Origin: an uncultured Kofleriaceae bacterium | GTDB lineage: Bacteria > Myxococcota_A > Polyangia > GCA-2747355 > CAZCFB01 | Assembly (NCBI GenBank): GCA_964497805.1 | Contig: CAZCFB010000004.1 | Span: 6,648-70,647, forward strand | DNA length: 64,000 nt | Reading direction: 5' to 3' | In this document: one piece after another, positions 36,590 to 61,019 of the stretch | How the letters are laid out: the number at the start of each line of letters is the position of its first letter | Numbering within the stretch: position 1 is the first letter of the stretch | Position numbers and translations under genes: made by a program | The notes under the pieces: model-generated | What the model was told of the DNA's origin: nothing | What the model saw: the letters and a program-made list of their open reading frames with translations, nothing else | Database searches by the model: none

Positions 36590-38752
36590 ATGGACGAACC
36601 GAGCGTCAAAAAGATCCTGGCCTCCATGGCCTCATGGCAGGCCTCTGACCTGTTCATCGCAGAGGGACGCCCCCCCGCGGCCCGGGTGCACGGCGCCGTA
36701 CGGCAGTCTGACCTGGCGGTCACCAGCCGGGAGGTGGTCGAGGCGTTCCTCCAGGAGCTGCTCACCCCCGCCGCGCGCGAGCGGTTCAACGAGGATGGCG
36801 ACCTGGACGTGGGCTACTCCCTGCCCAACGGCAAGCGGTTCCGCCTCAACCTGTACCGGGAACGCGGCGAGCTGGCCCTGGTGGCCCGGGCCCTGCCATC
36901 CGGCGAGCTCACCTTCGAGGAGCTCGGCCTGCCCGACGCGGTGCGGGGGTTCGCGGACCTGCCCCGGGGCCTGGTGCTGATCACCGGGGCCACCGGCTCG
37001 GGCAAGTCCACCACCCTTGCCGCCATCATCCACCACATCAACTCCCACCGTGGGGTTCACATCGTCTCGGTGGAGGACCCCATCGAGTTCGTGCACCGGG
37101 ACATCAAGGCGCGGGTCTCACAGCGCGAGGTGAACACCGACACCGGCTCCTTCTCCGCGGCCCTACGCCATGTGGTGCGGCAGAGCCCTGACGTCATCGT
37201 GCTGGGCGAGATGCGCGACCTGGAGACCATGCAGGTGGCCATCTCCGCCGCGCTCATCGGACACCTGGTGTTCGCCACCCTGCACACCATCGACGTCACC
37301 CAGTCCATGCAGCGGATCCTGAGCTACTTCCCGGAGCACATGCGGGACCAGGCCGCCATGGACCTCTCCCTCAGCCTGCGCGGGGTGGTGTCTCAGCGCC
37401 TGCTGCCGCGCAAGGACGCCAAGGGACGCGCCCTGGCCGCTGAAGTGCTGGCAGTCTCCCCGGCTGCTGCCAGGCTGATCAAGGAGCAGCGCGCGGAGGA
37501 CTTCCAGGACTACATGAAGACCGCGGACGACCCGTCGGTGATGACCTTCAACCAGTCCATGTTCGCCCTGTATGAGGCGGGCATCATCGACGACGAGATG
37601 GGCCAGGCCTACGCCAGCAACCCTGAGGAGTTCGCCCTGATGGTGCAGGGCATGTCCACTGGCGTGGCTGCCTTCGGGCGGGACACCGAAGCTGGCGGCG
37701 GCGGGCTGGACATGAAGGCTCTGCTCCGGATGACCATGGACAGGGACGCCTCCGACCTCCACCTCACCGTGGGCCGCCCCCCCATCTTCCGCATCGGAGG
37801 GGAGCTGTCCCCGCTGGAGGTCCCCGCTCTCTCCATGGCCGACATGCGCATGCTGCTCTACTCCATCATGAGCGTGCGCCAGCGCTCGACCTACGAGCTG
37901 GAGCGGGAGATCGACTTCGCCCTGGCCCTGGAGGACGGCAAGCGCTTCCGGATCAACGCCTACCACCAGAAAGGGCAGATGGCGGCCTCCCTGCGGGCCA
38001 TCCCCACGCACATCCCCTCTGCTGAGGAGCTGGGCCTGCCGGAGGTGGTGCTGGATATGGGCAACCGGCCACAGGGTCTGCTCCTGGTGGTGGGGCCCAC
38101 CGGCGCAGGCAAGACCACCACCCTGGCCTGCCTGATCAACCGGATAAACCAGTCGCGCCCCTGCCGCATCATCACGGTGGAGGACCCCATCGAGTACGTG
38201 CACGAGGGGAAGCGCGCCACGGTGGATCAGCGGGAGGTGTACGCCGACACCAAGGGGTTCGCCGCCGCGCTCAGGTACGTGCTGCGTCAGGATCCGGACG
38301 TGATCCTCGTGGGGGAGCTGCGGGACCGGGAGACCGTCTCCTCCGCCCTCACCGCGGCCGAGACAGGGCACCTGGTCATGGCCACCCTGCATACCAACGA
38401 CGCGGTGCAGGTGGTGGACCGCGTCGTGGACATCTTCCCTGCCCACCAGCAGGGGCAGGTGCGCTCCCAGCTCTCGGCGTCGCTGGTGGGGGTTATCTCC
38501 CAGCGCCTGCTGAACCGCGCCCTCGGCGGCGGGCGCGTGGCCGCCTTCGAGGTGATGGTGGCCACCACCGCCATCCGCACCCTGATCCGCGATGACAAGA
38601 TGCACCAGGCGCTCTCCACCATGGAGGCGGGCCTGGGCCAGGGGCAGATGCCCATGGACCGCGCCCTGTCCGACCTGGTCCAGCGTGGGGTGATCGATCG
38701 GGAAGATGCCAAGCGCTACATGAGGAACCCGCGCACCCTGGGGGGTGCATAG
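36590..38752 (+). CDS. Tandem (duplicated) PilT/PilU-family retraction-type ATPase, two complete modules in one polypeptide
   Basis: Trimmed to MDEPSVKK. Module 1: GATGSGKST, VEDPIEFVH, VIVLGEMRD, GHLVFATLHT. Linker ...FGRDTEAGGGGLD near nt 37700. Module 2: GPTGAGKTT, VEDPIEYVH, VILVGELRD, GHLVMATLHT, plus the AIRNLIRE-like motif AIRTLIRD. Confidence 0.85.
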   Translation: MDEPSVKKILASMASWQASDLFIAEGRPPAARVHGAVRQSDLAVTSREVVEAFLQELLTPAARERFNEDGDLDVGYSLPNGKRFRLNLYRERGELALVARALPSGELTFEELGLPDAVRGFADLPRGLVLITGATGSGKSTTLAAIIHHINSHRGVHIVSVEDPIEFVHRDIKARVSQREVNTDTGSFSAALRHVVRQSPDVIVLGEMRDLETMQVAISAALIGHLVFATLHTIDVTQSMQRILSYFPEHMRDQAAMDLSLSLRGVVSQRLLPRKDAKGRALAAEVLAVSPAAARLIKEQRAEDFQDYMKTADDPSVMTFNQSMFALYEAGIIDDEMGQAYASNPEEFALMVQGMSTGVAAFGRDTEAGGGGLDMKALLRMTMDRDASDLHLTVGRPPIFRIGGELSPLEVPALSMADMRMLLYSIMSVRQRSTYELEREIDFALALEDGKRFRINAYHQKGQMAASLRAIPTHIPSAEELGLPEVVLDMGNRPQGLLLVVGPTGAGKTTTLACLINRINQSRPCRIITVEDPIEYVHEGKRATVDQREVYADTKGFAAALRYVLRQDPDVILVGELRDRETVSSALTAAETGHLVMATLHTNDAVQVVDRVVDIFPAHQQGQVRSQLSASLVGVISQRLLNRALGGGRVAAFEVMVATTAIRTLIRDDKMHQALSTMEAGLGQGQMPMDRALSDLVQRGVIDREDAKRYMRNPRTLGGA

Positions 38753-38793: not shown

Positions 38794-41379
38794 CTACTTA
38801 TTGCGTCGAGATCTCCTCAGCAAGGCCCGCACGCGCAGCTCCAGCTCCTCCGGATCGAAGGGCTTGGGCATGTAGTCGTCGGCGCCGGCCTTGAGGCCCT
38901 CCTTGATGTGCGACTTCTCTCCACGGGCGGAGAGGATGATCACCGGCAGGTCCGCGGTGGCCTCGGTGTGCTTGACGTGCTCGCACACCTCGTACCCCCC
39001 CATGCGCGGCATCATCACGTCGAGGATAACCAGGTCTGGCATTTCCTCTTCGATCTGCTCCAGCGCCTCCACGCCGTCCCGGGCGAGGCTGATCTCGAAG
39101 GTGTCCTCCAGGGTGATGCGCACCAGCTGCAGGATCTCCTCGGCGTCGTCCACCACCAGGATCTTGGGGCGCTCCTGGGGCTCGGCCGCCTGAGCCACGG
39201 GCTGCTCCGCGGCCGAGGTCATGGTCCCGGCCTCCGCCTCCACAGGAGACATCACCCCGGACCCTCCATCAACCGGGGACATGGCCCCTGTGGCGGCGTC
39301 CACCGGAGACATCTCCCCGGACGCCTCGTCGAAGGGGGACATCATCCCGGACCCACCGTCAACCGGTGACATGGCCGCCACCGGCGACATGCCGGCCACC
39401 GGTGACATGCCAGCCACCGGCGACATGCCAGCCACCGGCGACATGCCGGCCACCGGCGACATGCCGGCCACCGGCGACATACCATCCACCGGCGACATGC
39501 CGGCCACCGGCGACATACCATCCACCGGTGACAGCTGGCCCTCGCCGGCCTCCACGTAGGGGGTCTTCTCGCTCGGGTCGATGACCTCGATGGCCTCGTA
39601 GCTGAAGGCCGGGCGCGCGGCGGGCTTCTTCCGCTTGAGCAGCGGATCCAGGTGGAGCCACGCGTCCACCGGGATCACCCTGGCGACCTCCTCCAGGGTG
39701 GTGACGCCGTCGGACACCTTGGCCAGGGCGTCGTCAAACAGAGTGCGCAGCCCCTCGGACCTGGCCTGGCTCCAGAGGGTCTGCTCGGAGGCGCGCGCCT
39801 GGATCAGGCTGCGCAGGGAGTCGCCGATGGGGAGCACCTCGAACACGCCCACGCGGCCGCGGTAGCCGGTGTAAAGGCAGGCAGGACAGCCCGCACCAAC
39901 CCGGCGGGTGAAGCCCTCCAGGTTGCGCGGCGGCACGCCCACCCGGTACCAGTCCTCCTCCTCCGGAGGGGCGACGATGGAGCACTTCTGGCAAACCCGC
40001 CGCACCAGCCGCTGGGCCACCACGCCGGTGAGGCAGTCGCCCAGCAGGTGGGGCGTGATGCCGAGCTCCAACATACGGATGATGGTGGAGGTGGTCTGCG
40101 TGGTGTGCAGGGTGGAGAGCACCAGGTGGCCGGTGGTGGTGGCCTGCACCGCCGCCTTGGCCGTCTCCTCGTCCCGGATCTCGCCGATGATGATGGCGTT
40201 GGGATCCTGGCGTAGCAAGGCGGGGATCAGGTCCGGGAAGCGCATCCCCGGCCGGTCCTTCACCTCGAACTGGACGATGCCGTCCACCGTGTACTCGATG
40301 GGGTCCTCCAGGGTGACGATGGAGGTGCTCTCGCTGCGCAGCCGGTTGATGGTGGAGTAGAGGGTCGTGGTCTTGCCCGACCCGGTGGGCCCAACACAGA
40401 GCACCATGCCCCGGGGGTGGGCCACCATGTGGTAGTAGGCGCCGAGCTGTTCAACGGCCCAGCCCAGCTTGCTCAGGTCCGCCTGCAGCATCTGCGGGTC
40501 GAGGATTCGGATGACCACGTTCTCGCCGAACTGGCTCGGCACCACCGAGACGCGCAGGTCGATGCGGCGGCCGGCGATTGAGACCGACGTCTTGCCGTCC
40601 TGGGGCTTACGGCGGCTGGCAACGTCCAGGTTGCAGATGACCTTGACGCGGCTGACCAGGGAGCCAACCGACCAGGGCGGCAGGCGCAGGATCTCCTGCA
40701 GCATGCCGTCGATGCGCAGGCGCACGCGCATGCCGTCGAACTGGGGCTCGCAGTGGATATCCGAGGCGTCCTTCTCGATGGCGTGCAGCAGCATGATGGA
40801 GACGAGGTCCACGTAGGGCGACTCGCCGCCCTGGCGCAGGCGCCGCTCGATCTCCTCGCCGTCCAGGGCGATGTGATCAGACCTGGACGCCTCCACCATG
40901 TCTGGCTTGGGCAGCGCCGCCTGGAGCACCCGCTGGGCCTGGGTCTCCAGCCCGTAGAAGCGGTCGATGGCCAGCTGCAGCCGGGAGGGCGACGCCACCA
41001 TCGGCTGGATCGCCCCCTTGAGCTGGAACTGCAGGTCGTTGAGCGCAGCCAGATCCAGCGGATCGGCCATGGCCACCAGGATGCGCCCCCCTTCGTCCTT
41101 GCGCAGGGGGAGCACCGCAACCTTCTCGGCCTGAGCCCGGGGCAGCAGGAAGATCAGGTGGCGGTCGATGTCCATATCGATGGGGTCCACATAGTCCATC
41201 GAGAATTGCTCGGCCAGGGCCCGCGCCACCGCCTCGTCAGAGCAGTGGCCCATGTCCACAAACAGCTCACCCAGGCGACGGTGCTTGACCTGCGTCTGCC
41301 GGTCCAGGGCATCCTGAAGCTGGCTGGTGCTGATGGTTCCGTTATCGAGGAGGATGTCTCCAATCTTTCGTCGGCTCAT
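38794..41379 (-). CDS. PilB/GspE/MshE-family secretion ATPase with N-terminal MshEN-type domain, (MSPVxG)n repeat linker and C-terminal response-regulator receiver domain
   Basis: N-terminus: [24 protein letters not shown] plus [24 protein letters not shown]. ATPase: [36 protein letters not shown], tetra-Cys CQKC...CPAC. C-terminus: [33 protein letters not shown] (complete REC signature). Confidence 0.85.
39362..39523 (-). repeat. Nine tandem 18-bp coding repeats ([12 protein letters not shown] hexapeptides)
   Basis: Units ACCGGCGACATGCCGGCC and variants counted by hand from 39362 to 39523. Degenerate copies extend to about 39221 and 39541. Confidence 0.9.
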
Positions 41380-41384
41380 GTTTC

Positions 41385-43205
41385 CTACTCGTTGTCCTCG
41401 GGGTTATAGACAGGGAGGTACACGGTGAACTTGCTCCCCTCGCCTTCGTTTGAGGTGACCTCGATACGCCCGCCCATCTGGGTCACCAGCTCCTTGCAGA
41501 TGAACAGACCGAGGCCCGCTCCCCCTGCCTTACGTGTGTCGCCACGCTCAACCTGGTAGAACTTCTCGAACAGCCGCGGGATCGCCACCTGAGGGATACC
41601 GCGCCCTGTGTCTCTCACCGCGATCCATACCTGATCCTTCATGCGCCCAACGGTGATCCTCACCACCCCGCCCCGCGGCGTGAACTTGAAGGCGTTGTTG
41701 ATCAGGTTCCCCAACACCTGGCCCAGGCGCATGGCGTCGCCCATGACCTCTTCGTTTTCGATCTCCCCGGGCAACAAGGAGAATTTGATGTCGTTGATCT
41801 TGGCCGCGGCCATGTGGGAGGAGTAGGCAGAGGCGGCCACGTCCGCCAGGCGCAGCGGGGCGAACTCGATGGTCAGGTTGCCCACCTCCAGGCGGGTCAT
41901 GTCCAGCAGGTCCTGGATCATGGCGAGCAGCCGGCTGGCCTGAGTGTCGATGACGCCGATGTAGCCCTTGTGCTTTGCGCTCAAGGCTCCGCCCTTGCCC
42001 AGCAGCATCACCTTGGTATAGCCGAGCACCGATGTGAGGGGGGTCTTCAGCTCGTGGGTGACCATGGAGAGGAAGTGCAGCTTCAGCTTCTCCACCTCCT
42101 TGGCCGCGGTGACGTCGGTGAGCACCAGCACATGCCCGGGGGTTTCCTCACCGGGGATCTGTGGCGGCTTGGCGATGGGGTTGGAGGAGATGTCGAAGAT
42201 GCTGGGCGGCGAGGCCTCCGGGTCCATGACCACCTCATGGGTGGCCGCCTTGGAGAGGTCGAAGATGTCGGCGGGGAGCTGGGGGAAGACGTCCTTGAGC
42301 AGCAGCCCGTCGGTGGGCATCACGCCCTTGCAGCCGGAGGCCTCCCACAGCCGCCGCACCTGAGGGTTCTGCTCCATGATGCGCCCGCCCTTCCCCACCA
42401 GGAGCACGCCGTCGTTCATGTTGTCCAGGATGGAGCTCTGCTCCGCGTTGCGCGCGTCCAGCTTGCCGATGGATGTGACGAGCTGGGAGCGCATGGCCTC
42501 CACGCTATCCCGCAGCACCTCCACCTCGGACACGCTGTTCACCTTTGGGATCTCCTTGGTGAAGTCGCCGTTCTTGATCCTGATGGCCGCGCTCGAGAGC
42601 GCCTCCAGCGGCATGCTCAGCTGGCCGCGCATACGGTACGCCCGGATCATGCTCAGGGCGGACATGAGCAGGATCCAACCCAGCCCGCCAGGGATGACGG
42701 GCAGCAACCAGCTGAGCCACTCGGGCCTGGTGCCGAAGACGCTGTACATCAGGGCAGCCTGCACGCGCATGTGGGCGTTGACCAGGGGGCGGAGCATGCT
42801 CTCCCGTTCGGCGGAGGGGGTTATCTCAACCCGCTTCATCCAGTCACCCGCCAGCTGGCGGTATGTGAGCAGCTCCGGGCGGCATCCCTTGGCCGGCTCG
42901 CCCAGGGCCTCCACCCGCTTGTCCACCAGCTCGAGCTTGACACTCAACCCGCGGATCTCCTGGGGCGTGGGGGCCTCCTCCAGCCTCACGAGCCGCCCTT
43001 GCAGCTCGTCCATGATGCCGTTGATGATGCCCACCTCCTTCATAATGGTGAGGGTGGGCCAGGACCTCAGGGCCGTGGCAAGGGTGATGGTGAGGCCCGT
43101 TAGCGCCACCACGGTGAGGGAGGAGAGGAGCAGCAGGGTGCTCACCTGCCAGCGCAGACTATTAAAACGCCCCAGCCGGGACTCCACCTTCGGGCGTGCC
43201 ATCAT
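41385..43205 (-). CDS. Sensor histidine kinase (2 TM, HAMP, PAS-like, HisKA, HATPase_c)
   Basis: H-box HELKTPLTSVLGY. N/G boxes (NLINNAFKFT, DTGRGI, GGAGLGL). HAMP-like segment after the second TM. Its stop lies 5 nt before the PilB-like start. Confidence 0.85.
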   Translation of the reverse strand: MMARPKVESRLGRFNSLRWQVSTLLLLSSLTVVALTGLTITLATALRSWPTLTIMKEVGIINGIMDELQGRLVRLEEAPTPQEIRGLSVKLELVDKRVEALGEPAKGCRPELLTYRQLAGDWMKRVEITPSAERESMLRPLVNAHMRVQAALMYSVFGTRPEWLSWLLPVIPGGLGWILLMSALSMIRAYRMRGQLSMPLEALSSAAIRIKNGDFTKEIPKVNSVSEVEVLRDSVEAMRSQLVTSIGKLDARNAEQSSILDNMNDGVLLVGKGGRIMEQNPQVRRLWEASGCKGVMPTDGLLLKDVFPQLPADIFDLSKAATHEVVMDPEASPPSIFDISSNPIAKPPQIPGEETPGHVLVLTDVTAAKEVEKLKLHFLSMVTHELKTPLTSVLGYTKVMLLGKGGALSAKHKGYIGVIDTQASRLLAMIQDLLDMTRLEVGNLTIEFAPLRLADVAASAYSSHMAAAKINDIKFSLLPGEIENEEVMGDAMRLGQVLGNLINNAFKFTPRGGVVRITVGRMKDQVWIAVRDTGRGIPQVAIPRLFEKFYQVERGDTRKAGGAGLGLFICKELVTQMGGRIEVTSNEGEGSKFTVYLPVYNPEDNE

Positions 43206-43276: not shown

Positions 43277-43349
43277 GGGGGTGTCGGGTGTGGGGAGCGG
43301 GAGCGGGAGCGGGAGCGGGAGCGGGAGCGGGAGCGGGAGCGGGAGTGGG
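43277..43349 (+). repeat. G-tract microsatellite: 8 perfect GGGAGC units plus flanking G-runs (G-quadruplex-capable)
   Basis: GGGAGC units at 43293-43340 counted by hand, then GGGAGT GGG. Preceded by GGGGG..GGG..GGGG. Intergenic, between stop 43373 and start 43205 of minus-strand genes. Confidence 0.9.
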
Positions 43350-43372: not shown

Positions 43373-45232
43373 CTACTTGGACAGGTAGGGCAGATCCAGC
43401 AGCAGGCGCAGGCGGCCCCAGCGGGTGTGCCCCATCTCTTCCCAGCGCCAGAAAACCGGGAGCAGGACCCGATCGCTGCGGGCGATGCTGTCCAGGAGCA
43501 TGACCACCCCCAGGCGGGAACCGGCAAGCTGGAGTTCGAGCACCGCGTGCCGTACAGCGCCCTTCTTGCGCGGAGTTGGCACGCGCCGGGCGAGCTTGAG
43601 CCGCAGCTGCTGCAGCCGCGCCACGTTGGTGAGCATGTCCAGCACCTCGGACAGCCCCTCGGAGGTGGGTAAGCGCCCCTCAGCCTTTTCGGCGCGGCCC
43701 TTGAGGGTTGCCACATCGGCCTCAACCTTGCTCGCGTCCAGGCGGAGCTTTCGAGCCAGGGTTGCGGCGTCTATCTTGCTCCCCCGGCGGCGGCCCGTGC
43801 GCGCGCGGCCGCCCTCGGGGTGGGCCACCGCCGCCGTGCCCGCCACCGCCCCTCCGCCGCCGACCTTGTTGGCGCGGATCTCTTCGAGCACATCGCACTG
43901 CGACAGGTACCTGAGCACGCGCTTGCGCAGACCGGAGGGTTTCCAGGGCGGACGGAGCTGCCAGCTGACCTGCCTTCCGTCAAAGGAGCGCAGGGCCGCC
44001 ATGGGCCCCCGCCCCTCGCTGGAGTAGGCGCGCGCCTCCTCGTCCAGGCGCTGCTCCCGGGCCACCACCTGCGGCACGATGGAGCCGTCCCGGTCAAAGG
44101 GCCAGGCTGGCTGGATGGAGCCGAAGAGGCAGCTGAAGAGCCCGTCAGAAACTCGCTGGTGGTATTGCAGGGCGCGCAGGGCGTGCAGGCCCCGCCGGAG
44201 CTGCCGCCGCTCCACCCAAAGATCCAGGGTGCGGGAGAGGGTGGCTCGCTCCCCCGGCTTCAGGCCCTTCACCGTGGTCAGGTCCCAGCCTTCGTCGCCG
44301 CGGGGGAATGGCGGTTTGGCCAGGGCCCCCTCCAGCCAGGGCCAACGCGGCAGCCGCACCGAGAGGTCCCGCTGGCGTTCCCGCACCAGCCACTGATTCA
44401 CCACCCTCGGCGCGGGCGCTCTGGGGGCGTGCCAGATCAGGGTGAGGCGGGCCCCGTCCTTGCCCACGGCCAGCCTGGCGCCGGTGAAACCGTCCGGCAG
44501 GCCGGCGCCCTCCGAGGTTATCCGCTCCACGGCCTTGGTCAGGTCCCCCTCCAGCTTCACGGTGAGGCCGGTGCGCTGGAAGAAGGACGACGGCTTGAGA
44601 TCAGCGATCTCCCACGCCGGCACGTTCTTGCCCTTGGGCGGCGTGGTGGGGGCGAGCACGCCCTTGGGGCAGGTCGCCTTCACCGCCGCGGCCAACTTCT
44701 TGCCCCGGGTCTGGGTCTGGGCCAGGTCGGTGGCGCGCTCTATGACCTTCACCCGCAGGACGGGATCGCTGCGCAGCACGAAGCGGAACCGCTTCCCCCG
44801 GGCCCGGCGGGCTTGATCCAGGCGCCAGCTTACGCCGGCGCCCGCCTCGTTCAGGCGCCCAAGGAAGGCCGCTACCTCCTGCAACCCGGCCGCCTCGCCG
44901 GAGATGCGGGGGCCCATGGGGCCCAGGGCAAAGGCCACGCGGGAGACGGCCGCGGCCTCGCCGCTGGAGGCGTCGGTCCAGCTGTCGGAGCCGGCGCTGG
45001 GCACCTGCCCCACGGCCGCACCCAGGGCCTCCAGGTGGGCCGACAGGTCGCTGGTGGAGCGCCGGGCCAGCTTGAGCCCCTTCTCCTGGATCACGCAGGC
45101 CATGATCCGGGCCCGATCCTTGCCAAGCCGTACCTTGCCGGGGCGGCGGGTCTGCCGCGCCGGGCCCGCGCACGCGGTGATAAATACCGCGGCCGCCAGC
45201 AGCAAAAGCTCCAGGCTCCTTCTCTCGCTCAT
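43373..45232 (-). CDS. Lipoprotein with a PilO/GspM-like C-terminal domain
   Basis: ATG 45232: MSERRSLELLLLAAAVFITACAG (lipobox). The C-terminal ~110 aa (coiled segment, then VRHAVLELQLAGSRLGVVMLLDSIARSDRVLLPVFWRWE...RLRLLLDLPY) resemble the ferredoxin-like PilO/GspM fold pattern. This is inference. Confidence 0.6.
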   Translation of the reverse strand: MSERRSLELLLLAAAVFITACAGPARQTRRPGKVRLGKDRARIMACVIQEKGLKLARRSTSDLSAHLEALGAAVGQVPSAGSDSWTDASSGEAAAVSRVAFALGPMGPRISGEAAGLQEVAAFLGRLNEAGAGVSWRLDQARRARGKRFRFVLRSDPVLRVKVIERATDLAQTQTRGKKLAAAVKATCPKGVLAPTTPPKGKNVPAWEIADLKPSSFFQRTGLTVKLEGDLTKAVERITSEGAGLPDGFTGARLAVGKDGARLTLIWHAPRAPAPRVVNQWLVRERQRDLSVRLPRWPWLEGALAKPPFPRGDEGWDLTTVKGLKPGERATLSRTLDLWVERRQLRRGLHALRALQYHQRVSDGLFSCLFGSIQPAWPFDRDGSIVPQVVAREQRLDEEARAYSSEGRGPMAALRSFDGRQVSWQLRPPWKPSGLRKRVLRYLSQCDVLEEIRANKVGGGGAVAGTAAVAHPEGGRARTGRRRGSKIDAATLARKLRLDASKVEADVATLKGRAEKAEGRLPTSEGLSEVLDMLTNVARLQQLRLKLARRVPTPRKKGAVRHAVLELQLAGSRLGVVMLLDSIARSDRVLLPVFWRWEEMGHTRWGRLRLLLDLPYLSK

Positions 45233-45272
45233 CACGCCGCTCCTCTGGTTCCTGGTTGGTGTCAGTCTAAAA

Positions 45273-57023: not shown

Positions 57024-60000
57024 ATGTTTGAACAGATGAGTATCGTCGTCGTCGCAGAGAAGCCCTCGGTGGCCCGGGACATCGCCAAGGTCCTGGGTGC
57101 CGGCGCCCGCCGCCAGGGCTACATCGAGGGGAAAGGGTACCGGGTGACCTGGGCCCTTGGGCACCTGGTGACCCTGGCCCAGCCCCACGAGATCAAGCCG
57201 CAGTGGAAGCGGTGGCGCAGGGACCAGCTCCCCATGCTGCCCGCCTCCTGGCCGCTCACGGTGCTGGAGCGAACCCGGGACCAGTACGAGATCGTCAAGA
57301 CGCTCATGAGCGGCGAGGACGTGGAGTACGTGGTGGAGGCCACCGACGCCGGGCGGGAGGGGGAGCTGATATTCCGCTACATCTACGACCGGTGCGGTTG
57401 CGACCGGCCGGTGCGGCGTCTCTGGATCTCCTCGCTCACCCCTGACGCAATCAAGAAGGGGTTCGCGGGCCTTGCCGACGGCGCCGAGTACGAACGCCTG
57501 GCCGCGGCGGCCAGGGGGCGCAGCCAGGCCGACTGGCTGGTGGGCATGAACCTCTCGCGGGCCTACACCCTCGGCACCTCCGACGACGAGCTCTTCTCGG
57601 TGGGCCGGGTGCAGACCCCCACCCTGAGCATGCTGGTGGACCGGGAGGTGGCGATCCGGGAGTTCGTGCCGCAGAAGTTCATCGAGGTGGTTGCGACCTT
57701 CCAGCCCGAGGGGAGCGAGGCGACCTACCCGGGCACCTGGTTCAAGGGCAAGGGGAAGGGCAAGACCCCCACCCGCCTGCCCCCGGACGGCGAGGAGGCG
57801 GGCGCCGTGGCGGAGCGCGCCCAGCGTGGCAGCGCCTCCATCGAGAAGGTGAAGCGGGAGAAGAAGCGCCACAAGGCCCCCCTGCTCTACGACCTCACCG
57901 AGCTGCAGCGCCACGCCAACCGGCTGTACGGCCTCTCCGCCGACAAGACCCTGAAGCTGGCGCAGGCCCTGTACGAGAAGCACAAGCTCATCAGCTACCC
58001 GCGAACCGACAGCCGCCACCTGTCCAAGGACGTGGCCGCTACCCTGGGCAACGTGGTCAAGGCCGTGGCCGCTCCTTACCGGGATCTCCTGGCGCCGGGA
58101 ACCGGGGACAAGCCCCTGGGCAAGCGGTTCGTGGACGACAAGAAGGTCACCGACCACCACGCCATCATCCCCACCACCGGCTCCATCCAGGGCAAGAGCC
58201 TGGCCCGGGAGGAGAAGCTGATCTACGACCTGGTTTGCCGTCGGCTGCTGGCCGCCTGGCACCCGGACCATGTCACCGCCACGACGACAGTGATCACCCG
58301 CATCGACGCGCCGGAGGGGGAGACCTGGAAGCCGGACCGGTACCGCTCCAGCGGCACCTCGGTGGAGGATGAGGGGTGGAAGGTGATGGAGCCCCTGGCC
58401 GTGGTGCGCAAGAAGGAGAAGGGCAAGAAGAAGAAGGCGGAGCAGCTCCTGCCGGGGGGCCTCTCCGAGGGGCAGCCAGCCAAGGTGCTCGGTACGGAGC
58501 AGCGGCCAGGGGAGACCCGCCCTCCCCGCCCCTTCACCGAGGGGACCCTGCTCACCGCCATGGAGACCGCTGGCAAGGCCCTGGATGACAAGGAGCTGTC
58601 CGACGCCATGCGTGAGCGGGGGTTGGGCACGCCGGCCACCCGGGCCAGCATCATCGAAACCCTGCTGCACCGGAAGTACATCGAGCGTCAAAAGAAGACC
58701 CTGCGCGCCACGCCCAAGGGGGAGCGGCTGATCCGGCAGGTCCATGAGGAGGTCAAGAGCCCGGCCATGACCGGCCAGTGGGAGCACCGGCTCAAGCTCA
58801 TCGAGCAGGGGAAAGATGAGCTTGATGGGTTCATGGAGGATATTGAGGCGTACGTGAAGCGGGTGGTGGGGTCGGTCTTGAAACCGGGAGGTGGAGGCAG
58901 CAGGGCGCGGGAGCGTGGTCCGTCGCCTTCGCCGTCCCCCCCCGCGAGGGAAGGGACGAGGGTTCAAGGGCCGGATGGCCGGGGCCGGGGCCGGGGCCAG
59001 GAAGCACGTTCCATGCAGCAGGTGCTCAAGGAGACCTTCAGGCACGATTCCTTCCGCCCTCATCAGGAGACGGTGTGCAAGAAGGTCATCGCTGGCGAGG
59101 ATGTCTTGCTGGTCATGCCCACCGGGGCGGGCAAGTCGCTCTGTTATCAGCTGCCGGGTCTTTGCCGTCAGGCCACCACCCTGGTGGTGAGCCCGCTCAT
59201 CGCGCTCATGGAGGATCAGGTGGCCGCCCTACAGGCCATCGGACTGCGCGCCGAGCGGATCCACTCTGGGCGGGACCGCCTGGCCTCGCGCCAGGTATGC
59301 CGCCGCTTCCTGGACAATGATCTCGACTTCCTCTTCATCGCGCCCGAGCGCCTGGCCGTGCCTGGCTTCCCGGAGTTTCTGGCCAAACGCAAGCTCGGGC
59401 TCATCGCCGTGGACGAGGCGCACTGCATCTCTCAGTGGGGTCACGACTTCCGCCCGGAGTACCGCATGCTCGGTGAGCGGCTCCCCATGCTGCGGCCCGC
59501 GCCGGTTATCGGGCTCACTGCAACGGCCACGCCTGCGGTGCAGGACGACATCGCCGAGCAGCTGGGCCTGAAGCATGACAACCGCCACATCCATGGCTTC
59601 CGGCGCACCAACATCGCCATCGAGGCGGCCGAGCTGAGCCCGAGGCTGCGCCCCGCCGCCGTGCGCAAGGTGCTGGAGAGCGAAGACCGGCTGCCCGCCA
59701 TCGTCTACTCCCCCACCCGCAAGAAGACCGAGGCCCTGGCCGCGGACCTGAGCAACGGCTTCCGCGCAGCGCCGTACCACGCGGGAATGACCGCCGAGAA
59801 GCGGGACGCTTGCCAGGCCGCGTTCATCGCCGGGGAGCTCGACGTTGTGGTGGCCACCATCGCCTTCGGAATGGGCATCGACAAGGCGAACCTGCGCACC
59901 GTGATCCACGCGGCCCTGCCCGGCAGCGTGGAGGGGTATTACCAGGAGATCGGGCGCGCGGGCCGGGACGGTAAACCTTCCCGCGCAGTGCTCCTGTACA

Positions 60001-61019
60001 GCTACGCCGATCGCCGCACCCACGAGTTCTTCTTCCAGCGGGACTACCCCGAGCCCGAGGAGCTGGGGCACCTGTTCGAGATGATCGACGACAACCCCCG
60101 CCCGGCAGAGGCCATCCGCAGGCGGCTCAACTGGGACGACGAGCCGTTCCAGACCGCCCTGGAGAAGCTCTGGATCCATGGCGGCGCCCGGGTGGATCCC
60201 GAGGAGAACGTCACCCGGGGCGAGGCGGGCTGGCGCCGGCCGTACCGCAAGCAGCGCGAACACCGCCAGGAGCAGCTGGAGAAGATCTACAGATACGCCG
60301 AGCAGCCAGCATGCCGGATGCTCACGTTGGTGAACTACTTCGGCGACAGGGAAGACTCGGGCGAGACATGCGGCGTGTGCGACGCGTGCGCACCGGGCGA
60401 CGGGCTGCTAACAAGCTTCCGCGCGGCCAGCGCCGACGAGCTCATCGGCATGGAGCGGATCCTGGACGCCCTGCGCCGCCAGGATGATCAGTCCGCCGGC
60501 AAGCTGCACCGTGAGGAGCTGTCAGACCTGGGGGAGCGCCACGACTTCGAGGATCTGGTCTCCGGGCTGGAGCGGGCCGGGCTGCTCACCCGGGTGGAGG
60601 ACAGCTTCAGCAAGGGCGGGCAGCAAATCCCGTTCACCCGGCTCCGCCTCACCGCCGACGGGGCCAACCCGGGCCAAAGCATGCTGGCCGACGCGGTGAA
60701 GATGCCCGGCGACACCTCGGCCTTCGAGCCCAAGAAGCCGCGCCGGCGCAGGGGCGGCAAGAAGAAGCGCAAGAAGGACGCCCTGGACGAGATCGAGGCC
60801 CCCGCCGCCCTGGTAGAAGCCCTGCGGCAGTGGCGCCTTGACGAGGCCAAGCGCCGCAACACCCCCGCCTTCCGGGTGCTAACCAACAAGACCCTGGGCA
60901 ACATCGCCGCGCTTCAGCCCACCTCCGAGGAGGACCTGCTCGCCGTACCCGGCATGGGTCCTGGCCTGCTCAAGAAGTACGGCGAGGCCATCCTCAAGGT
61001 CATTGAAGACAGCATGTAG
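57024..61019 (+). CDS. topB/recQ: DNA topoisomerase III fused in frame to RecQ helicase (with RQC zinc motif and HRDC)
   Basis: aa 1-~620 Topo IA/III: VVAEKPSVARDIA, VEATDAGREGELIF, GRVQTPT, ISYPRTDS (catalytic Tyr context). RG/SP linker. From aa 664 (ATG 59013) RecQ: FRPHQ, MPTGAGKSLCYQLP, DEAHCISQWGHDFRPEY, Zn motif CRM...CGVCDAC, C-terminal HRDC (ALRQWRLDEAKRRNTPAFRVLTNKTL). Confidence 0.85.
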   Translation: MFEQMSIVVVAEKPSVARDIAKVLGAGARRQGYIEGKGYRVTWALGHLVTLAQPHEIKPQWKRWRRDQLPMLPASWPLTVLERTRDQYEIVKTLMSGEDVEYVVEATDAGREGELIFRYIYDRCGCDRPVRRLWISSLTPDAIKKGFAGLADGAEYERLAAAARGRSQADWLVGMNLSRAYTLGTSDDELFSVGRVQTPTLSMLVDREVAIREFVPQKFIEVVATFQPEGSEATYPGTWFKGKGKGKTPTRLPPDGEEAGAVAERAQRGSASIEKVKREKKRHKAPLLYDLTELQRHANRLYGLSADKTLKLAQALYEKHKLISYPRTDSRHLSKDVAATLGNVVKAVAAPYRDLLAPGTGDKPLGKRFVDDKKVTDHHAIIPTTGSIQGKSLAREEKLIYDLVCRRLLAAWHPDHVTATTTVITRIDAPEGETWKPDRYRSSGTSVEDEGWKVMEPLAVVRKKEKGKKKKAEQLLPGGLSEGQPAKVLGTEQRPGETRPPRPFTEGTLLTAMETAGKALDDKELSDAMRERGLGTPATRASIIETLLHRKYIERQKKTLRATPKGERLIRQVHEEVKSPAMTGQWEHRLKLIEQGKDELDGFMEDIEAYVKRVVGSVLKPGGGGSRARERGPSPSPSPPAREGTRVQGPDGRGRGRGQEARSMQQVLKETFRHDSFRPHQETVCKKVIAGEDVLLVMPTGAGKSLCYQLPGLCRQATTLVVSPLIALMEDQVAALQAIGLRAERIHSGRDRLASRQVCRRFLDNDLDFLFIAPERLAVPGFPEFLAKRKLGLIAVDEAHCISQWGHDFRPEYRMLGERLPMLRPAPVIGLTATATPAVQDDIAEQLGLKHDNRHIHGFRRTNIAIEAAELSPRLRPAAVRKVLESEDRLPAIVYSPTRKKTEALAADLSNGFRAAPYHAGMTAEKRDACQAAFIAGELDVVVATIAFGMGIDKANLRTVIHAALPGSVEGYYQEIGRAGRDGKPSRAVLLYSYADRRTHEFFFQRDYPEPEELGHLFEMIDDNPRPAEAIRRRLNWDDEPFQTALEKLWIHGGARVDPEENVTRGEAGWRRPYRKQREHRQEQLEKIYRYAEQPACRMLTLVNYFGDREDSGETCGVCDACAPGDGLLTSFRAASADELIGMERILDALRRQDDQSAGKLHREELSDLGERHDFEDLVSGLERAGLLTRVEDSFSKGGQQIPFTRLRLTADGANPGQSMLADAVKMPGDTSAFEPKKPRRRRGGKKKRKKDALDEIEAPAALVEALRQWRLDEAKRRNTPAFRVLTNKTLGNIAALQPTSEEDLLAVPGMGPGLLKKYGEAILKVIEDSM

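Follow-up and report, generated by a model that had tools for sequence, protein, structure and literature searches.

The switching of pilus and secretion motors is under active study, and the answers known so far are separate cofactors: PilZ/FimX, PilG/PilH, the PATAN-REC proteins and DrdR. A locus in 64,000 nucleotides of DNA from an uncultured Kofleriaceae bacterium (contig CAZCFB010000004.1, positions 6,648 to 70,647; this whole stretch is hereafter called the window) raises the question of whether such a motor can carry a phosphorylatable switch of its own. One gene (38794..41379, minus strand) encodes an 861-residue protein that consists, by its open reading frame (ORF) and Pfam matches, of an MshEN domain, a T2SSE-family ATPase, a disordered linker and a C-terminal receiver domain (REC). 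The gene directly upstream on the same strand (41385..43205) encodes a 606-residue sensor histidine kinase. Our preferred reading, to which we assign a probability of roughly 60% from sequence comparison, is that the kinase acts in cis on this orphan PilB-family motor, controlling it directly through phosphorylation, and that cyclic di-GMP (c-di-GMP) possibly provides a second input.

The N2 and C-terminal ATPase domains of the 861-residue protein (residues 185-567; 39679..40827, minus strand, as for all its parts) match Pfam T2SSE with an E-value of 2.7e-112. We aligned the protein with its 22 closest homologous clusters using MAFFT (alignment A1; 23 sequences, identity 47-86%) and examined the catalytic motifs. 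Walker A (GPTGSGKT, 330-337), the Asp box (EDPxE, 358-362), Walker B (D392 and GExRD, 399-403) and the His box (TGHLVL..H, 416-425) are invariant in all 23 sequences and place the protein in the PilB/GspE (T2SSE, PilT-like) superfamily. Equally invariant is the tetra-cysteine (CxxC...CxxC) zinc site of the C-terminal domain (C463, C466, C498 and C501), the feature of an extension-type ATPase. The closest solved structures of the core are PilF/PilB proteins (E-value about 1e-120), followed by GspE (about 1e-98), and the best NCBIfam model is that of PilB (TIGR02538), to which the protein scores nearer than to GspE. Its layout of MshEN, N2 and C-terminal domains, its Walker A and B motifs, Asp and His boxes and its tetra-Cys zinc site are all shared with the PilB/PilF structures from M. 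xanthus (3JC8), Geobacter (5TSG and 5ZFR) and Thermus (6F8L). In contrast to these, the protein has an additional disordered linker of about 160 residues and a C-terminal REC, and it is encoded outside a pil cluster and behind a dedicated histidine kinase.

The receiver (residues 740-850; 38830..39162) matches Pfam Response_reg with an E-value of 9.8e-29 and is OmpR/PhoB-like, with D787 as the predicted phospho-acceptor. In the AlphaFold2 (AF2) model computed from A1, it forms the five strand-helix units of a (beta/alpha)5 fold at a predicted local distance difference test score (pLDDT) of about 90. Residues D744, D745, D787, S817, Y836, K839 and P840, which include the acidic pair, the phospho-acceptor aspartate, the Ser/Thr, the aromatic switch and the lysine expected of a receiver, are unchanged throughout A1, and the MshEN-T2SSE-REC order is common to all 22 homologous clusters. 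The best matches of the domain are RpaA, PhoP, PhoB, RpaB and MtrA, and the OmpR/PhoB-type alpha4-beta5-alpha5 signature GADDYxxKPFxxxELxxRxxAxxRR is nearly invariant. No domain of the protein is better conserved than REC, whose mean pairwise identity of 67% exceeds that of the ATPase core (61%) and of the linker (22%); this suggests constraint from several partners or interaction surfaces. The Pfam search for a winged-helix DNA-binding domain behind REC gave no Trans_reg_C match and the protein ends 11 residues past the REC match, so that the architecture of an OmpR/PhoB response regulator (REC followed by a C-terminal winged helix) is absent. A preliminary description of the locus, made from the letters alone, had proposed both a complete PilB/GspE-type ATPase core and a canonical C-terminal receiver on the same polypeptide. 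The invariant motifs bear out both proposals, and the Pfam scan that it called for detected MshEN, T2SSE and Response_reg, each above its curated cut-off.

The kinase is predicted to comprise a transmembrane segment, an extracytoplasmic part of ~120 residues, a second transmembrane segment, HAMP, a PAS-like domain, HisKA (with H384) and HATPase_c. The two hydrophobic stretches flanking the extracytoplasmic part were identified by direct reading, while HAMP, HisKA and HATPase_c exceed their Pfam cut-offs. The best PAS match (PAS_8) reaches 19.3 bits against a cut-off of 21.8, and since the Pfam matches stay below threshold we call this domain PAS-like; of the HAMP-PAS kinase described earlier as stopping 5 nt before the ATPase gene, the HAMP and catalytic domains and the spacing hold, and the PAS assignment is weak. 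At the junction, 5 nt (GAAAC) separate the kinase stop codon from the start codon (ATG) of the ATPase gene, and an AGGA lies close by on the upstream side; the arrangement is compatible with translational coupling. The best NCBIfam matches of the kinase, PnpS, WalK and PhoR, are of the class that partners OmpR/PhoB-type regulators. Judged by best matches, the REC and the kinase thus both appear to be of OmpR/PhoB-system type, matching the class of PhoR-PhoB, WalK-WalR and PnpS-PnpR; the difference from these systems is that the 861-residue protein has no winged helix and that its output would be the ATPase N-terminal to REC. Most simply, an OmpR-type two-component pair would have lost its DNA-binding domain and had its receiver fused behind a PilB-like ATPase.

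The pairing of the two genes is conserved. A same-strand kinase of ~470-615 residues with HAMP-HisKA-HATPase_c lies immediately upstream of the ATPase gene in eight of nine lineages (the window lineage, P0003, P0006, P0007, P0009, P0013, P0014 and P0017), the two genes overlapping by up to 4 nt or lying up to 41 nt apart, and this holds across 48-92% identity. These kinases are orthologous, four of them aligning end to end at 36-51% identity, and their co-inheritance substantiates the proposed coupling of kinase and ATPase. The other neighbours differ between the nine lineages, and Pfam detects no second REC-encoding gene near the pair in the window. Because the kinase alone is kept beside the ATPase and no other receiver gene is nearby in the window, the conserved unit is exactly two genes.

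The N-terminus carries a candidate second input. Pattern matching and direct reading located two tandem 24-residue motifs of the c-di-GMP-binding type at residues 5-28 and 35-58 (MshEN_N, residues 5-58; 41206..41367), as predicted in the preliminary description, followed by the MshEN_C/T2SSE_N1 alpha-beta subdomain (residues 59-147; 40939..41205; Pfam PF05157, E-value 3.1e-20). The Pfam match alone does not test the c-di-GMP motifs, because they lie N-terminal to it; the older Pfam model of the domain (T2SSE_N) leaves out the c-di-GMP site (Wang et al., PMC5013675, supplement). The same arrangement of two RLGxxLLxxG...LxxxLxxQ motifs and T2SSE_N1 is found in V. cholerae MshE, and the N-terminal 156 residues align over 3-142 with its MshEN-c-di-GMP structure (5HTL; PMC5013675; E-value 1.3e-15). 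AF2 predicts a four-helix bundle here (helices 6-12, 18-30, 36-42 and 48-58; pLDDT 81-92). Reviews list twelve key residues for 5HTL, R9-L10-G11/L25-L29-Q32 and R38-L39-G40/L54-L58-Q61. The corresponding residues K5-I6-G7/L21-L25-Q28 and R35-L36-G37/V51-L55-Q58 are identical at nine of the twelve positions and conservatively replaced at three, so that the R-L-G and L-L-Q elements are recognizable in each motif.

These features suggest a two-gene signalling-motor module composed of a membrane sensor kinase and a PilB-family hexameric assembly ATPase. In this model the ATPase would have acquired the OmpR/PhoB-type receiver cognate to the kinase, stripped of the DNA-binding domain and attached at the C-terminus through a long, disordered tether. 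An envelope signal would cause the kinase to phosphorylate D787 of the tethered REC, and phospho-REC would in turn alter motor activity, ring assembly or localisation, in an activating or an inhibiting sense. In OmpR/PhoB regulators, phospho-REC dimerises via alpha4-beta5-alpha5. The same conserved face would probably serve here: RECs on adjacent protomers could pair through it, or REC could use it to dock onto the ATPase or be released from it. The MshEN_N bundle would probably bring c-di-GMP as a second input, and the machine driven by the ATPase, resembling a type IV pilus or a type II secretion system, would have its genes elsewhere in the genome. The tethered REC may thus be the cis counterpart of stand-alone receivers that bind PilB or PilT in trans: in Xanthomonas, both PilB and PilT are bound by DrdR, which increases the ATPase activity of each (PMC13507683), and in Synechocystis PATAN-REC regulators are reported to bind PilB1.

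Several observations weigh against this reading. The protein scores 515.2 bits with the NCBIfam PilB model TIGR02538 (equivalog cut-off 675.65) and 479.6 bits with the GspE model TIGR02533 (cut-off 630.25), and because both scores fall below their cut-offs we regard the ATPase as a divergent PilB-family paralogue and not as a canonical PilB or GspE. Pfam identified no genes for a platform protein, pilin, secretin or PilMNOP, either across the 64 kb of the window or in the 10 kb flanking each side of eight other family loci. The full-length AF2 model (predicted template modelling score 0.50) gives no reliable REC docking site or inter-domain geometry. In the most divergent clade, P0022 is the one lineage of the nine that has no adjacent kinase, the nearest being 7 kb upstream, and P0021 and P0022 both lack the N-terminal motifs. 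For c-di-GMP, lysine (K5) replaces R9 of V. cholerae MshEN, isoleucine (I6) replaces L10 and valine (V51) replaces L54, and the two motifs are separated by 6 residues (29-34) and not by the 5 of the 53-residue MshEN unit. Alignment of Geobacter PilB with the 861-residue protein also requires a one-residue insertion in this spacer, showing that its length varies among PilBs. Moreover, some MshEN-bearing PilBs (those of P. aeruginosa and Xanthomonas) do not bind c-di-GMP. Taking the motifs and these deviations together, c-di-GMP binding by the N-terminal domain is plausible, at roughly even odds.

The low equivalog scores, together with the position of the gene away from pilus and secretion genes in all nine lineages, would also fit a protein that is not a motor but a signalling ATPase, acting below the kinase as a nucleotide- and phosphorylation-dependent switch, for example for exopolysaccharide (EPS) or another envelope process. 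There is precedent in M. xanthus PilB, reported in one study to function as a signalling protein for EPS (PMC5544727), and the relative P0177 retains REC while its Walker A is degenerate (GPGDSGRS). We nevertheless consider this alternative unlikely, since the ATP-hydrolysis motifs and the zinc tetra-Cys site are all invariant in the window's own family, which favours a working hexameric motor, and since genes of extension ATPases need not sit in a cluster with their machines. P0177 itself (734 aa, from a JGI metagenome and outside the window) has N-terminal motifs of the MshEN type and, at its C-terminus, a REC typical of the family, and its Asp and His boxes are eroded; by sequence it is possibly a pseudo-ATPase retaining the signalling parts only.

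A second alternative accepts the motor and assigns REC a passive role, mainly as a tether, localisation handle or phosphate sink that holds the ATPase at the membrane kinase, or draws phosphate from that kinase, without allosteric control of ATP turnover. The linker makes this worth weighing. Residues 577-734 (39178..39651) are Ala/Pro/Ser/Gly-rich, contain tandem repeats and have pLDDT values of 29-37 with no secondary structure over about 160 residues, in contrast to the MshEN, N2/C-terminal and REC modules, which AF2 predicts to be well folded. Across the family the linker measures 38-167 residues and is Ala/Pro/Glu-rich with its 22% identity, and on the AF2 model it is a hypervariable disordered tether. 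Rigid allosteric coupling through so long and unconstrained a segment is unlikely, and the membrane location of the kinase also suits a tether. The near-invariance of the alpha4-beta5-alpha5 segment, on the other hand, implies constraint that exceeds the kinase-docking alpha1 face, and stand-alone RECs do alter PilB/PilT ATPase activity (PMC13507683). A purely passive receiver is thus quite improbable, and direct control of the motor by phospho-REC remains our preferred reading.

The last alternative is an artefact: an assembly error or frameshift in the low-complexity tandem repeats of 18 nt and 30 nt at the junction, with which short-read assemblers may have difficulty, would have joined a PilB gene and an independent response-regulator gene. 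It is practically negligible, because three other independent assemblies carry the identical 861-residue product and the fused order occurs in 22 of 22 homologous clusters, most of them repeat-free, and in 91 of 150 wider representatives. The repeats comprise an 18-nt unit in 9.6 copies (39362-39533) and a degenerate 30-nt unit in 4.2 copies (39248-39372); all are in-frame and encode an MSPV(A/D)G hexapeptide array (39248-39533, minus strand). The three metagenome assemblies (ENA ERZ23498639, JGI 3300009008 and JGI 3300007511) each differ from the window gene by one synonymous base, and the ORF is therefore uninterrupted in four independent sequences, in agreement with the continuity across 39.2-39.6 kb that the preliminary description had singled out for checking. 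The fusion is thus confirmed as genuine and conserved. P0001, a relative that is 92% identical over the segment aligned by BLAST, lacks the array and has a linker shorter by 59 residues; the array looks like a coding minisatellite that expanded recently.

How widespread the architecture is was assessed by an exhaustive profile search of 1.84 billion representatives clustered at 50% identity, of which the top 150 matches were classified. REC follows a PilB-like ATPase in 91 of these and precedes it in 6. The rarity suggested by the 22 clusters of a word-indexed homologue search was overturned by this result. Recurrence of the ATPase-then-REC order in so many representatives also indicates that the fusion was selected for and is not an accident. 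Zinc-ribbon-like CxxC...CxxC motifs lie between ATPase and REC in 41 of the 91, and several of the 91 have long extensions beyond REC. Among examples outside the window, P0175, P0181, P0187, P0189 and others have a PilB-like ATPase, then a double zinc-ribbon-like segment and then the C-terminal REC, and the four named proteins continue after REC into Ala/Glu/Arg-rich, coiled-coil-like extensions of 400-760 residues. The marker of the window subfamily, DDY[LM][PA]KPFDPEE, was found in three representatives. All named sources of C-terminal-REC ATPases are metagenome-assembled genomes (MAGs) of Myxococcota, 'Deltaproteobacteria' and one Planctomycetota, and the proteins are annotated generically as PilB, TadA or 'response regulator'. 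A scan of genome contigs with a REC-only alignment ([PA]KPFDPEE and DVMMP[RK][MKL]xG) retrieved, among the matches listed, only generic OmpR-type regulators of at most 52% identity.

Full-text literature searches turned up no description of a PilB/GspE ATPase with REC at its C-terminus; their coverage leaves out most subscription journals, so that this absence is not proof. Wang et al. (2016; PMC5013675, Suppl. Table 4) catalogued REC-MshEN-T2SSE, GAF-MshEN-T2SSE and MshEN-T2SSE-cNMPbind proteins, MshEN-T2SSE-REC not being among them, and a 2024 review of PilB cofactors does not mention a receiver fusion. The earlier suggestion that the C-terminal REC arrangement is not a characterised one therefore stands as far as the literature goes; as an indication of rarity it fails. 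The architecture is common but uncharacterised, and both sensor-domain fusions to secretion or pilus ATPases and receiver control of pilus motors are already known.

Comparison with these known systems places the fusion more exactly. The catalogued fusions likewise join a signalling domain to the ATPase, and a REC fusion (Geobacter Gmet_3473) and a C-terminal sensor fusion (Desulfotalea DP2226) are each on record; in Gmet_3473, however, REC is N-terminal, ahead of MshEN, whereas it is C-terminal in the 861-residue protein. For none of them did the literature yield a characterisation or a conserved partner kinase. Xanthomonas DrdR, Synechocystis PATAN-REC proteins of the PixG/PixH type and Pseudomonas PilG/PilH are likewise phosphorylatable receivers reported to act on PilB or PilT. 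They differ in being separate polypeptides, mostly fed by CheA-type kinases, while the REC described here is covalently tethered and encoded beside a classical membrane HisKA kinase. A mechanistic analogy is offered by the NtrC-type REC-AAA+ enhancer-binding proteins, in which phosphorylation of the receiver governs whether a ring ATPase on the same chain assembles or is active. They differ in that their ATPase is AAA+ and not a PilT-like additional-strand catalytic-E enzyme, in that REC is N-terminal and in that the linker is short and structured.

A fusion of this kind is a 'Rosetta stone' that places a canonical phosphorylatable receiver and a dedicated kinase directly on the motor. It offers a compact pair of proteins with which the control of a PilB-type ATPase by phosphorylation could be rebuilt in vitro and dissected structurally. 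With at least 91 clusters at 50% identity, from Myxococcota/'Deltaproteobacteria' MAGs and one Planctomycetota MAG, the data suggest an ecologically widespread regulatory design that annotation pipelines have flattened; the abundance of ATPase-REC fusions in metagenomes lowers their rarity value and raises their biological relevance, and for specialists they provide a useful testable model more than a surprise. A bolder version, which we offer tentatively and at somewhat less than an even chance, is that the hexameric motor itself serves as response regulator in a classical two-component system. The kinase would act post-translationally through six OmpR-type receivers on their tethers, perhaps paired round the ring, and switch the ATPase on or off within seconds; c-di-GMP would be an independent second gate, and the wider ATPase-REC fusions, including those with zinc-ribbon-like motifs, would represent a widespread and overlooked form of motor control.

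Beyond the kinase, two neighbouring genes were considered as core parts of the module and rejected, their synteny being confined to the window lineage and an 81%-identical relative. One, convergent with the ATPase gene, encodes a tandem PilT-PilT fusion of 720 residues with two complete PilT/PilU units (36590..38752, plus strand; ORF from 36491; NCBIfam TIGR01420, 820 bits in two stretches), and Walker A, Walker B and the His box are intact in both halves. It adjoins the ATPase only in the window lineage and in that relative, P0003 (synteny L001-L003 and L090), where the arrangement hints at an extension/retraction pair. Three such chains would make a pseudo-hexamer. Tandem PilT fusions of ~720-745 residues form at least 120 clusters, mostly with Myxococcales/Myxococcota MAG labels and annotated as plain PilT, and we met no description of the fusion in the literature. 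The other, directly upstream of the kinase (43373-45235, minus strand), encodes a 620-residue protein with a lipoprotein-like N-terminus (LLLAAAVFITAC), has no Pfam or NCBIfam match and is kept in the closest relatives only. At L091, a 720-residue gene two genes downstream of the ATPase and a 503-residue upstream gene are unrelated to the tandem PilT and the 620-residue protein, respectively. In the 167-nt gap between the 620-residue gene and the kinase start, a near-perfect hexanucleotide repeat (GGGAGC, 9.5 copies) occupies 43293-43349. Elsewhere in the window, in one ORF of 1331 residues (57024-61019, plus strand), Toprim and type IA topoisomerase domains are joined to a complete RecQ helicase (DEAD, Helicase_C, RecQ_Zn_bind and HRDC), making a TopoIII-RecQ fusion of two proteins that usually act as a complex.

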